Source of the DNA: Candidatus Pyrohabitans jungbluthii
GTDB lineage: Archaea; Hydrothermarchaeota; Hydrothermarchaeia; Hydrothermarchaeales; BMS3B
DNA length: 64,000 bases
Assembly: GCA_002010065.2 (NCBI GenBank)
Contig: MTMD02000001.1
Coordinates: 1 to 64,000, forward strand
Reading direction: 5' to 3'
Shown here: positions 54,312 through 58,601 of the stretch, piece after piece
Layout of the letters: each line of letters opens with the position of its first letter
Numbering within the stretch: position 1 is the stretch's first letter
Made by a program: the position numbers and the translations under genes
Notes under the pieces: model-generated
Told to the model about the DNA's origin: nothing
What the model saw: the letters and a program-made list of their open reading frames with translations, nothing else
Databases searched by the model: none

Positions 54312-54379
54312 CCACAAAATATTTATAATGAAAAATCGTGATAATTGTTAATATCGGTGATTGTCGTAGAGGTGAAGAA

Positions 54380-55504
54380 ATGAAGCTTGCCTATGTTGGC
54401 TTGCCCTGTCAGCTTCAGGCGCTACGAAAGCTGCAGCTCTTCTCTGACCAGCTTGGCCAGGAGTGGGCTAACAGCGTGAGCCTTACTATTGGGCTGTTCT
54501 GCCGCGAGAACTGGGCGTACACCTGTTTCCGCGCCCTGGTTGAGGACGACTACGGCGTGAAGCTGAGCGAGGTTGAGAAGTTCGACATAAAGAAGGGCAA
54601 AGTTATAGGGATGCGCAACGGTGAGGTGGTGCTGGAGATACCCCTCGCGGAGACCAAGCCTTATGTGCGTGTGGGCTGCCAGGTTTGCCTCGACTTTTCC
54701 GCTGAGCTTGCAGACCTGAGCGTGGGCGCCGTGGGTTCGCCAGCGAAGTACAGCACCGTTATAGTGCGAACAAAGCGGGGTATGGACCTGCTTAAAGCAG
54801 CGGAACGCGAGGGCTACGTTGAGGTGAAGCACATAAGCGAGGTAAAGCCGGGACCGAAGCTGGTGCTCAAGCTCACAAAGGAGAAGCGCGACGAGAACCT
54901 CGCCGAGGCGGAGCGCAGAGAGCGCGCTGGCTACGTGGCTAAGCACATAGCCACGATGGGAGAGAACAATCTGGAGAAGCTGGTGGAGGAAGCCCAGGGC
55001 AAGAGCTTCGCTGATTTAGAAAAAGATGTTATAGACGCTGGCATGTGCATCTCATGCGGGACCTGCGTTGCGGTTGCGAGCGAACAGTTGGAGATGGTGG
55101 AGGAGCGCCCCCGCCTGAAGGAAGGTGCAAAGGGGGATGTGCCCAACGCTTACCTAGCATGTCCCCGCACCTCGCTGCCCAGCATGGTTATAGCCGAAAA
55201 GCTGTTCGCTGATGAGGGCGAAATGAATAGCGACAGCCTGGGGAAGTACATTGACATCTTCGCAGTCAAAGCCACGGATAAAGCAAAGCTCACCCGCTGG
55301 CAGGATGGTGGTGCAGTTACTGCGCTGCTGCTCTATGCGCTCAAGGCGGGAGAAATAGACGCGGCGATTACTGCGAAGCGTGACGAGAACTGGCGTCCAC
55401 TTGCAGTCGTAGCCTCGAGCGAGGAGGAGCTTCGCGAGACAGGAGGTACGCTCTACTGCTACGTGACCAACATGCCCCTGCTGCGGGAGGTGGCTTCAAA
55501 GTGA
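54380..55504 (+). CDS. FrhB/FdhB-family (F420-binding beta subunit-like) protein, circularly permuted
   Basis: FrhB C-domain motifs ([27 protein letters not shown]) come before CISCGTC...CPR and the FrhB N-domain motif [10 protein letters not shown]. Confidence 0.85.
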
Positions 55505-56040
55505 AGGAAATACGCTTCCATGGTCGAGGAGGTCAGGGCGCAGTCACTGCTGCAGACCTGCTTGCAATGGCAGCCTTCTTTGACGGCAAGTACTCGCAGG
55601 CTTTCCCAAGCTTCGGCACAGAGCGCAGGGGGGCGCCTGTCACAGCGTTTGCCAGAATAAGCGACCGCTTCATCCGCTTGAGGAGTCAGATTTATGAGCC
55701 GGATTACATTGTGGTGCAGGACCCCTCGCTGCTCGAGGTTATAGATGTGGCGAAAGGACTTAAGAGCGATGGCAAGGCGCTTGTAAACACTGAGAAGAGC
55801 ACTTTGAAGCTAAACACCGAGGCTGAGGTTTACACGATAAACGCCACAAAGATTGCCCTCGACGTGCTGGGCGTGCCCATAGTCAACACCGCCATGATAG
55901 GTGCCTTTGCGGCGCTCACCAAAGAGGTTTCTCTGGATTCGGTAATAAAAGCGGTGCGCAGACGCTTTCCTGCAAAGCTCGCTGAAAAAAACGTTAAGGC
56001 GGTTGAGGTGGCGTACGAGAAGATGGAGGCCAAGCTATGA
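55501..56040 (+). CDS. porC: Pyruvate/2-oxoacid:ferredoxin oxidoreductase gamma subunit
   Basis: [26 protein letters not shown]. Confidence 0.93.
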
Positions 56041-56300
56041 AGGTTAACATCGCAGCGTGCATCACTGAGCCCGGGAGCTCAGAGCGTAATAAGACTGGCG
56101 GCTGGCGCGTTTTCCGCCCGGTGATTAACAATGAGCGCTGCATAGACTGCGGAAGCTGCTGGATATTCTGCCCTGAGGCGTGCATATCCCGTGACGAGAA
56201 GGGCGAGTATGAGGTGGACCTGGACTTCTGCAAAGGCTGCGGAATCTGTGCAAATGAGTGCCCGTCTGAAGCTATAGAGATGGTGCTGGAGGAGAAGTGA
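56037..56300 (+). CDS. porD: Pyruvate/2-oxoacid:ferredoxin oxidoreductase delta subunit
   Basis: KTG.WR..RP and two CxxCxxCxxxCP motifs. Confidence 0.93.
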
Positions 56301-57472
56301 TGCCCCACAAGGATGTGATGCATGGCTCTCGCGCGGTTGCCGAGGCGGTAAGGCTGTGCGACGTTAAAGTGGTTGCCGCTTACCCAATTACACCCCAGAC
56401 GCACATCGTGGAAGACATCGCCGAGATGGTGGCAAACGGCGAGCTTAAGGCAGAGTACATAATGGTTGAGAGTGAGCACTCTGCCATGAGCGCATGTATT
56501 GGAGCGAGCGCTACAGGGGCAAGGGTGTTCACCGCCACTGCTTCGCAGGGGCTTGCGCTCATGCATGAGGTGCTGTGGATAGCCTCTGGCATGCGCCTTC
56601 CTATCGTCATGGTCAACGCAAACCGTGCGCTGAGTGCGCCGATAAACATCTGGAACGACCAGAGCGACTCCATCGCCGAGCGTGACTCTGGCTGGGTTCA
56701 GATTTACGTGGAGACCAACCAGGAGGCGCTGGACAGCGTGATTCAGGCTTACCGCATAGCTGAGCATAAGGATGTGCTCCTGCCCGTGATGGTGTGCATG
56801 GACGGCTTCGTGCTCACCCATACCGTGGAGCCGGTAGAGGTGCCTGACGAAGAGCAGGTGAAGCGCTATCTGCCTGAGTTTGACCCACCTTATGTGCTCG
56901 ACCCTGAGCAGCCTGTTACCATGGGTTCCCTGGGCGACCCCAACTACTATATGGAGTTCAGGAAGCAGCAGGAGCTTGCGATGGAGAATGCGCTTCGCGT
57001 GGCGAAGCAGGCGGATGAGGAGTTTAAGGAGATCTTCGGGCGAGGTTATGGTCTGGTCGAGGGCTACAACCTCGAAAACGCCGAGATTGTGCTGGTAACT
57101 ATGGGCTCCCTGGCAGGTACCATAAAAGAGACGCTCGACGCCCTAGGCGATGAGAAGGTTGGCCTGCTCAGGATCCGCCTCTTCCGCCCCTTCCCGAAGG
57201 AGGAGGTGCGGAAAGCACTTGCGCAGGCGAAGGTGATAAATGTAATTGAAAAAGATGTTTCCATCGGCTTTGGTGAAGGTGCTCTGATGACTGAGCTCAA
57301 GAGCGTGCTCTACGGCAGCAATGCAAAGATTCTCGGTACCGTCGCTGGGTTAGGCGGGCGAGACATAACCATGACGCACATCCGCGAGGCTATTGAGCGG
57401 GCAAAGCGTGCGCTGCGTGGCGAAAGCGTTGAAGAAGTAGCCTGGGCAGGTTTGAAGGAGGAAGCGCTGTGA
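56297..57472 (+). CDS. porA: Pyruvate/2-oxoacid:ferredoxin oxidoreductase alpha subunit
   Basis: [26 protein letters not shown]. Confidence 0.94.
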
Positions 57473-58443
57473 AGGTCGTTGCAGATATTCCCAGCTATGT
57501 GAAGTGCCGCCACGTGTGCGGCGCAAGTTTAGCGGCTAACCGCTGCTTCAAGTTCAGACTCAATGTTAAAGATGTAAATGAAGAGGAGTATTTTGCTCCT
57601 GGACATAGAGGTTGCGCCGGCTGTGGTTGCACCATAGCCATGAGGCTTGCGCTTAAAGTCGCTGGTAAGAATGTGATTGTAACCCACGCAACTGGGTGCA
57701 TGGAGGTTATAAGTTCACCCTATCCAGAGACCGCCTGGCGCGTGCCCTGGATTCACGTCGCCTTTGAAAATTCCGCCGCCGTGGCGAGCGGCGTGGAAGC
57801 TGCGCTCAAAGCACTGGGTAAAAAGGACAGGGTTAAGGTAATCGCCTTTGGTGGCGACGGCGGTACTGTGGATATAGGCTTCCAGGCGCTCAGTGGCGCT
57901 CTGGAGCGCGGGCATGACTTCGTGTACATATGCTATGACAATGAGGCGTACATGAACACAGGTATACAGCGCTCTGGCTCCACGCCCTACGGAGCTAGCA
58001 CCACCACCTCACCCCCTGGCAAGGAGAGCTTTGGTAACAAAACCTTTAAGAAGGATATGCCCCACATAGTCGCTGCCCACGGCATACCCTACGTGGCCAC
58101 TGCAAGCGTGGCTTTCCCCCTAGACTACATGGAGAAGGTAAAGAAGGCGCTTAGCGTAGAGGGACCTGCGTATGTGCATGTGCACGCGCCCTGCACCCCC
58201 GGCTGGGGAATAGCCAGCGAGAAGAGCATAGAAGTCGCGAGGTTAGCGGTGGACAGCGGCATGTGGATACTCTACGAGATAGAGAATGGCAAAAGCAGGG
58301 TGACCTACAAGCCCACGGTGAAGAAGCCTGTGAAAGAGTACCTACGCATGCAGAAGCGCTTCCGCCACCTCACAGAGGAGCACATCGATGTGCTTCAGCG
58401 CTACGTTGACGAGCGCTGGGCGGAGGTCTTTGGTGAGGATTAA
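57469..58443 (+). CDS. porB: Pyruvate/2-oxoacid:ferredoxin oxidoreductase beta subunit
   Basis: [30 protein letters not shown]. Confidence 0.94.
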
Positions 58444-58601
58444 TTAGCGAGGTCAGTAGTTTCAGAGGCACTGCATGGAGAGTGGCGACTTTTAGTTTTT
58501 TAATTCTTTAGCTTATACTTTATTTGCGATTATAATTACATTTTTGGTAAAAACGTAAGATTTATCTGTTTATCGAAGAAAAATTCAGCAATACTGGAAA
58601 G

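Follow-up and report, generated by a model that had tools for sequence, protein, structure and literature searches.

In Candidatus Ethanoperedens thermophilum, the zeta subunit of acetyl-CoA decarbonylase/synthase (ACDS; PDB 8RIU chain B) and FwdI (PDB 8RJA chain E) each carry a ferredoxin domain and an F420-reductase domain with one [4Fe-4S] cluster and flavin. According to the account given by Lemaire et al. (2024, Nat Commun, PMC11493965), both are bound subunits that make carbon monoxide dehydrogenase (CODH) and Fwd reduce F420, and zeta is anchored by its ferredoxin domain. A por-linked FrhB paralog from ANME-1 (anaerobic methanotrophic) archaea, termed 'FrhB6', was proposed as a dedicated F420-reducing system in the text of Chadwick et al. 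(2022, PLoS Biol, PMC9012536). Here, we describe a gene for an FrhB-family iron-sulfur flavoprotein from Candidatus Pyrohabitans jungbluthii (Hydrothermarchaeota), which heads an operon for pyruvate:ferredoxin oxidoreductase (POR) and in which the domains of this family are circularly permuted. It is found on the plus strand (54380..55504) of the window, a stretch of 64,000 nucleotides (positions 1 to 64,000 of contig MTMD02000001.1, assembly GCA_002010065.2). Zeta and FwdI share both domains with the permuted protein, and all three are encoded with a normally ferredoxin-dependent oxidoreductase (structural Z-scores to zeta and FwdI of 13.3 and 12.2). Zeta and FwdI, however, have the order ferredoxin domain, N-domain, C-domain (Fd-N-C), possess two ferredoxin clusters and have CODH and Fwd as partners, while the permuted protein has the order C-Fd-N, possesses one cluster and is encoded with POR. 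For zeta and FwdI, binding and activity were shown experimentally; for the permuted protein, both are predicted. The ANME-1-type por-linked genes also have the Fd-N-C order and are located downstream of porB, whereas the permuted gene is located upstream of porC and belongs to a separate clade (see below).

The open reading frame (ORF) starts with an ATG at 54380, terminates with a TGA at 55502-55504 and codes for 374 amino acids (aa). A GTG at 54338 would give a longer reading. The ATG is preferred because a Shine-Dalgarno-like GAGGTGA (54369..54375, plus strand, read from the sequence) is found 4 nt upstream of it and because most of the homologs shown begin within a few residues of it. Pfam assigns FrhB_FdhB_C to aa 1-154 (profile positions 2-149 of 150, E 2.9e-42) and FrhB_FdhB_N to aa 294-368 (profile positions 2-77 of 78, E 3.3e-20). 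In the test for the PF04422/PF04432 family, these domains score 144.5 bits (gathering cut-off 23.3) and 72.5 bits (cut-off 22), respectively. The family rule for FrhB/FdhB places the N-domain before the C-domain; here, it follows. A weak match to Fer4_13 at aa 218-265 (E 0.0018, 19.4 bits) is below its cut-off of 24.5.

Solved FrhB chains match the protein in two swapped stretches, with residues 286-371 of the query corresponding to FrhB 3-91 and residues 2-185 to FrhB 96-281. For the M. marburgensis FrhB, query residues 287-371 align to 3-88 and residues 2-175 to 96-270. When aligned with the zeta subunit (8riu_B, Fd-N-C), query residues 209-359 are colinear with zeta 8-158, which comprises the ferredoxin domain and the N-domain, and residues 3-175 correspond to zeta 178-344. 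The protein is an exact circular permutation, with nothing duplicated or left over. The alignment with zeta implies that the junction from ferredoxin domain to N-domain is ancestral, that the short loop between N-domain and C-domain was opened into new termini and that the junction from C-domain to ferredoxin domain (residues about 187-208) is new. In the window, the C-domain (aa 1-186; Pfam and alignment to FrhB 96-281) corresponds to 54380..54937 on the plus strand. It is followed by the new junction or linker (aa 187-217, 54938..55030, plus strand), which was delimited by the end of FrhB homology at about aa 186 and the begin of ferredoxin homology to zeta (8riu_B) at aa 209, and which forms three short helices in an AlphaFold2 (AF2) model. 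The ferredoxin-like domain (aa 218-268, 55031..55183, plus strand) has a single [4Fe-4S] site (C223, C226, C229 and C261-P262), and the N-domain (aa 284-372, 55229..55495, plus strand) was assigned by Pfam and by alignment to M. marburgensis FrhB 3-88. The initial annotation, made from the sequence without database searches, had described an ORF that begins with the C-domain and ends with a ferredoxin-like segment and the N-domain, and this is borne out by the Pfam coordinates and the swapped FrhB matches. It had also expected one ferredoxin cluster, and the listed cysteines are indeed present, with the four cysteines of a second cluster being absent.

FrhB (PDB 4OMF, 3ZFS, 4CI0, 6QGR, 9R51) is the best match in both sequence and structure and has the same [4Fe-4S] ligands and the same three loops that bind flavin adenine dinucleotide (FAD). 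FrhB itself has the order N-C, its ferredoxin domain being supplied in trans by FrhG, while the permuted protein has a ferredoxin domain of its own. Assignment as FrhB proper was rejected. The scores for TIGR03289 and NF006807 (230.2 and 254.4 bits) are below the cut-offs (331.5 and 269 bits), and the genome lacks FrhA. FpoF/FqoF, the F420H2-oxidizing input subunit of Fpo/Fqo, consists of the same three modules but in the order Fd-N-C; this assignment was rejected as well (NF040616 and NF006808; 121.2 bits compared to cut-offs of 475 and 444). The beta subunit of F420-dependent formate dehydrogenase (FdhB; PDB 7BKB chain E, 8RVU chain E) resembles the permuted protein in having its ferredoxin domain after the C-domain, and residues 1-274 of the model are colinear with 8rvu_E 87-370 (Z 13.1, 217 residues, root-mean-square deviation (rmsd) 3.8 Å). 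The order in FdhB is, however, N-C-Fd, and this protein is far more distant in sequence (80-99 bits, compared to 258-274 for FrhB and zeta). The cyclic order Fd, N, C is now represented in this family in each of its three rotations, namely the FpoF type, the FdhB type and the permuted type. The Fd-N-C order, which the initial annotation had considered usual, holds for the FpoF, zeta and Fsr types but neither for FrhB proper, which has no ferredoxin domain, nor for FdhB.

The permuted order is conserved. The best 120 protein clusters comprise 96 of the permuted type and 24 canonical ones. Except for three fragments, a single local alignment with each permuted-type cluster spans 86% or more of the query (93 clusters, 43-100% identity), while the canonical clusters cover just 36-50%. 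The alignment of 66 permuted homologs is colinear over the full length. In species-representative genomes, there are 32 permuted-order loci (one of them cut by a contig end) and 48 canonical-order loci. By name, nearly all permuted loci are from Hydrothermarchaeota, with one additional locus from a metagenome-assembled genome (MAG) of the Archaeoglobaceae. A full-length colinear match at E<=1e-60 is found in 32 of the 38 genomes from the phylum and in 20 of the 21 high-quality genomes; completeness is 62-90% in the six genomes devoid of such a match. The best 150 of the 5,716 representatives (50% identity) divide into 15 permuted and 135 canonical proteins, and none of these 150 has two C-domains or two N-domains in one protein, as expected for a duplication intermediate. 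One divergent permuted cluster (99 members) carries Ca. Methanofastidiosum names.

An artefact is thus practically excluded, whether by misassembly of tandem frhB copies into a chimera or by gene decay. The same colinear order recurs in the 93 near-full-length clusters, in 32 independent loci and across most of the phylum (32 of 38 genomes). The frame is open, the catalytic residues are invariant, the fold is predicted with confidence, and doubled domains are absent from the best 150 representatives. Positive support for an artefact was not found. In one locus type (L031:3099-6630 and L030:930-3633), the permuted gene and por are preceded, at a distance of about 1.3 kb, by a divergent canonical FrhB-like gene, which may be left over from a tandem pair or may be an unrelated paralog. 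The initial annotation had itself named a chimera, a lack of other permuted homologs and a lost FAD pocket as possible objections. The first two fail on the distribution just described and the third on the conservation of the three FAD loops, which are near-invariant in the 66 homologs.

In these homologs, the ligands of the FrhB-type [4Fe-4S] cluster (C10, C41, C100 and C103) are present without exception (66/66). P9-C10, C41, C100 and C103 align to C104, C134 and the CxxC of FrhB and represent a PC...C...CxxC site, a noncanonical [4Fe-4S] motif type which is given for Fsr in the text of Jespersen (2023). The FAD pyrophosphate motif Q308-D-G-G311 is part of the N-domain (Q in 65 of 66 homologs; D, G and G in all 66), as is the adenine loop G356-T-L-Y-C360 (G356 in 64 and Y359 in 66). 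The third loop, which contacts FAD and its isoalloxazine, is part of the C-domain (G38-W45, GLFCRENW), with E43 and W45 in all 66 homologs. These three segments align to FrhB 24-27, 73-77 and 131-138, and Allegretti et al. (2014) give the FAD loops of FrhB as 23-30 with QDGG, 71-77, and 131-138 with Cys134. The number of cysteines in the ferredoxin domain is variable (at most 5 in 12 homologs, 7 in 24 and at least 8 in 30). In the clade of the window protein, the second ferredoxin cluster is lost.

The AF2 model, computed with the 66-sequence alignment, has a pLDDT of 94.1 and a pTM of 0.92. With VIA-align, its C-domain matches FrhB chains with Z 14-15 (rmsd about 2.0 Å over about 188 residues) and the zeta subunit of the F420-reducing CODH (8riu_B) with Z 13.3. 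Foldseek and VIA-align are sequential aligners, and the structural matches cover the C-domain or the C-domain plus ferredoxin domain only, with N-domain residues 278-374 outside. The ferredoxin part of the model resembles the C-terminal ferredoxin domain of FrhG. A complex prediction for PorD and the permuted protein scored 0.00 in both runs, a value that bears on binding in neither direction.

The permuted gene is tightly linked to por. Its TGA (55502-55504) is overlapped by the GTG start codon of porC (55501-55503), as had been noted initially. The downstream genes, all on the plus strand, are porC (gamma; 55501..56040; NF006321, 'pyruvate ferredoxin oxidoreductase subunit gamma', 293.9 bits, cut-off 225), porD (delta, ferredoxin-like with 2x[4Fe-4S]; 56037..56300; PorD_Arch, 131 bits, cut-off 120), porA (alpha; 56297..57472; PorA_Arch, 592.8 bits, cut-off 550) and porB (beta, binding thiamine pyrophosphate (TPP); 57469..58443; PorB, 487.7 bits, cut-off 405, with the profile beginning at residue 34). 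Successive stop and start codons overlap, and each protein is above the NCBIfam equivalog cut-off for the pyruvate enzyme. Upstream of the permuted gene is a gene for a CBS-domain protein, and the AT-rich gap of 68 nt between the two contains a TATA-like box (ATTTATAA, 54321..54328, plus strand, recognized by eye), which is a putative archaeal promoter. Transcription may terminate at a T-rich stretch downstream of porB (58490..58509, plus strand, read from the sequence); the gene that comes next has the opposite orientation. The permuted gene and porCDAB presumably form one transcription unit.

Linkage of permuted homologs to por, which the initial annotation had proposed to check, extends beyond the window. 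Other genomes contribute 31 complete permuted loci, and in 23 of them the permuted gene is directly followed by porCDAB, with gaps of at most 47 nt, and 9 of these 23 show the same overlap of gene end and gene start as the window. Among the remaining eight loci, the permuted gene is followed by Mtd in four and by a luciferase-like (Mer-like) gene in one; it is located behind an IOR-like enzyme in another, and two are uninformative. The IOR-like case is from a Hydrothermarchaeota MAG (L035:3570-7092), where the permuted gene follows a pair that codes for a 606-aa protein with POR_N and TPP_C domains and a 218-aa POR-gamma protein. The permuted module is therefore also found with a second type of 2-oxoacid oxidoreductase. 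Canonical FrhB-like ORFs can be por-linked as well; of 50 such ORFs in the examined loci, 19 share a strand with por genes at a distance of at most 3.5 kb. In a Methanofastidiosia MAG (L070:1740-8440), a complete porCDAB set is followed by a second por set, in which a canonical FrhB-like gene separates porCD from porAB.

PorB from the window has an N-terminal extension of about 30 aa (aa 1-33, 57469-57570), which is outside of the NCBIfam PorB profile and contains three cysteines (P-S-Y-V-K-C-R-x-x-C ... R-C-F/W-K-F). The extension is also found in 17 por operons located behind a permuted gene (loci between L007 and L037) but is absent from 14 ANME-type por operons with a canonical FrhB-like gene downstream. 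A role in metal binding or in docking is possible.

A FastTree phylogeny with SH-like supports was computed from the concatenated alignments of N-domain and C-domain (110 tips). The 34 permuted sequences form one clade (0.973), while the canonical por-linked sequences, by name mostly from ANME-1/Methanophagales, form a separate clade (0.991) which does not include the permuted protein. From taxon and context, we infer that the canonical por-linked loci found here represent FrhB6. When 145 additional representatives are included, the permuted set splits into a main clade of 38 and five small groups, but deep nodes are weak. In an approximately unbiased (AU) test with 83 rows, a single permuted clade is not rejected (p-AU 0.976), and the tree which holds the 24 permuted rows together is better by 88.9 log-likelihood units than a quick free tree. 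Apparently, the permutation took place once, and the permuted module then diversified to serve different partners. It also seems that por linkage arose twice, in the permuted type independently of the ANME-1 type.

The genome codes for five FrhB-like proteins, three permuted and two canonical. In addition to the window gene, which adjoins porCDAB, one permuted gene (G000:C15, L086:9710-11991) has its stop codon overlapped by the start codon of Mtd, the F420-dependent methylene-tetrahydromethanopterin dehydrogenase. The protein from this copy has up to 487 aa, of which about 80 form a charged tail at the C-terminus. The third permuted gene (G000:C2, L087:4812-12355) is part of a cluster that codes for a molybdopterin oxidoreductase, an Fe-S protein, a NapH-like protein, NapD and a multihaem cytochrome c. 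Its protein has 370 aa, with QNGG in place of QDGG, and may function with this cluster as an F420H2-linked Nap-type reductase. One of the canonical genes (Fd-N-C; G000:C2, L088:7292-11717, minus strand) is found directly upstream of a gene for a 789-aa protein of the prismane/CODH family, which corresponds to the arrangement for the F420-reducing CODH in Ca. Ethanoperedens. It is preceded by a gene for a CBS-domain protein, as is the por unit in the window. The other canonical gene (G000:C14, L089:9209-16025) is located beside a corrinoid methyltransferase set. It codes for a 437-aa protein with two extra ferredoxin domains, and its neighbors code for URO-D/MtaA-like methyltransferases, a corrinoid protein, a RACo activase and an MtrH homolog. 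Genes for Fqo/Fpo subunits were not found among the scanned ORFs flanking the five FrhB-like genes.

As the initial annotation had proposed to check, F420 biosynthesis genes are present, with cofG, cofH, cofD and cofE all above their cut-offs. One cofH is adjacent to cofG on contig C8, and two further genes (G000:C14:111593-114552) also score above the cofH cut-off (TIGR03551; 391.6 and 379.1 bits). FrhA was not found above its cut-off in this genome (best match 79.9 bits, cut-off 392.5), so that F420 must be reduced in some other way. The por operon in the window codes for the only true POR in the genome, which is 99.95% complete; the next match is only 26-35% identical.

We propose that the permuted protein is the F420-reducing electron-output module of POR, probably docked as a fifth subunit, and assign this a probability of about 0.5. 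Pyruvate would be oxidized at TPP in PorA/PorB. Electrons would pass from the PorB cluster to the two PorD clusters and on to the cluster in the ferredoxin domain. From there, they would proceed via the FrhB-type cluster (C10, C41, C100, C103) to FAD, which would transfer a hydride to F420. The net reaction would be pyruvate + CoA + F420 -> acetyl-CoA + CO2 + F420H2. By analogy to zeta on CODH and FwdI on Fwd, the permuted protein would dock on POR via its ferredoxin domain. We infer that F420 is the substrate, that electrons run in this direction and that the protein is physically attached to POR, and F420 specificity is predicted from homology and context. The initial annotation had suggested a module that could link 2-oxoacid oxidation to F420 or to another two-electron carrier. 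The predicted link to F420 is consistent with por synteny, with Mtd and Mer-like neighbors of the paralogs, with F420 biosynthesis and with the CODH/Fwd precedent.

Several points weigh against this proposal. There is only a single true POR in the genome, and F420H2 (about -340 mV) cannot drive pyruvate synthesis (about -500 mV), as stated in Chadwick et al. (2022, PMC9012536). Should carbon be fixed via the Wood-Ljungdahl pathway in this organism, its sole POR must also make pyruvate, so that obligatory coupling to F420 is unlikely and ferredoxin must stay usable. Close permuted relatives adjoin Mtd, which provides no Fe-S chain to dock on, and in the clade of the window protein, only one of the two ferredoxin-domain clusters is retained. 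In addition, HCAR, which is a member of this family, does not use F420. The copies that adjoin Mtd fit equally well to a free-standing ferredoxin:F420 oxidoreductase. This alternative, which we consider possible but rather doubtful, is a soluble FpoF-like protein that is coexpressed with POR without being its subunit and that moves electrons from POR-reduced ferredoxin to F420, or in the reverse direction as a supply of reduced carriers. It accounts for members of the permuted clade beside Mtd and a Mer-like gene, which code for F420 enzymes without an Fe-S relay, and for a sole POR that must keep working with ferredoxin. Soluble FpoF acts in this way in Methanosarcina mazei (cited in Chadwick et al. 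2022, PMC9012536). However, the stop/start overlap with porC and the tight position before porC throughout the phylum are typical for subunits of one complex, and the solved zeta and FwdI proteins, which have the same domain content, are bound subunits in the description by Lemaire et al. (2024, PMC11493965).

The protein may also be a flavoprotein with an FrhB fold that acts on a substrate other than F420, either a different two-electron carrier or a small molecule. This is improbable. The ferredoxin-dependent HCAR (5dqr), which does without F420, does share the fold (Z 9.5, E 2.9e-9), but the C-domain is 39-43% identical to the F420-reactive FrhB, zeta and Fsr and only 21-22% identical to HCAR. 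The F420 pocket is empty in the Frh and Fsr structures as presented by Allegretti (2014) and Jespersen (2023), and the specificity residues are not defined by an F420-bound structure. On the other hand, paralogs adjoin Mtd and a Mer-like gene, and the F420 biosynthesis pathway is complete.

We raise, quite tentatively, the wider idea that the permuted protein is a true fifth subunit which makes POR a ferredoxin-independent pyruvate:F420 oxidoreductase, and that it is also one spoke of a phylum-wide F420 economy that operates without an F420-reducing hydrogenase. A permuted module of single origin would have been adapted to POR, IOR, Mtd/Mer and a Nap-type nitrate reductase, with the canonical module serving CODH and the three-cysteine extension of PorB serving as docking site.

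In the literature searched (supplementary tables aside), no description of a circular permutation in FrhB-type proteins was found, and the same search revealed no F420-linked pyruvate oxidoreductase enzyme under such names. The main texts of three Hydrothermarchaeota genome papers, supplements aside, were not found to mention the C-Fd-N arrangement, and an 'F420-reducing hydrogenase beta subunit' is merely listed for Hydrothermarchaeota in the text of Carr (2019). The rearrangement is real, conserved and, in the literature searched, undescribed. The functional idea has precedent, and por linkage of canonical paralogs was already known in ANME-1.

Because such proteins carry the annotation 'F420 hydrogenase subunit beta', an F420-reducing hydrogenase has been assumed for Hydrothermarchaeota in genome papers. 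The genome described here lacks FrhA above the cut-off. With the Fd, N and C modules occurring in all three rotations, the family is a natural example of a cofactor relay that tolerates rewiring of the polypeptide chain. FrhB-like modules are known to convert the ferredoxin-dependent, CO2-releasing CODH and Fwd into F420 reducers, while a counterpart for pyruvate has been predicted only from ANME-1 gene clusters. The locus in the window is a second, independently evolved candidate for such a counterpart, which is conserved across its phylum and translationally coupled to por.

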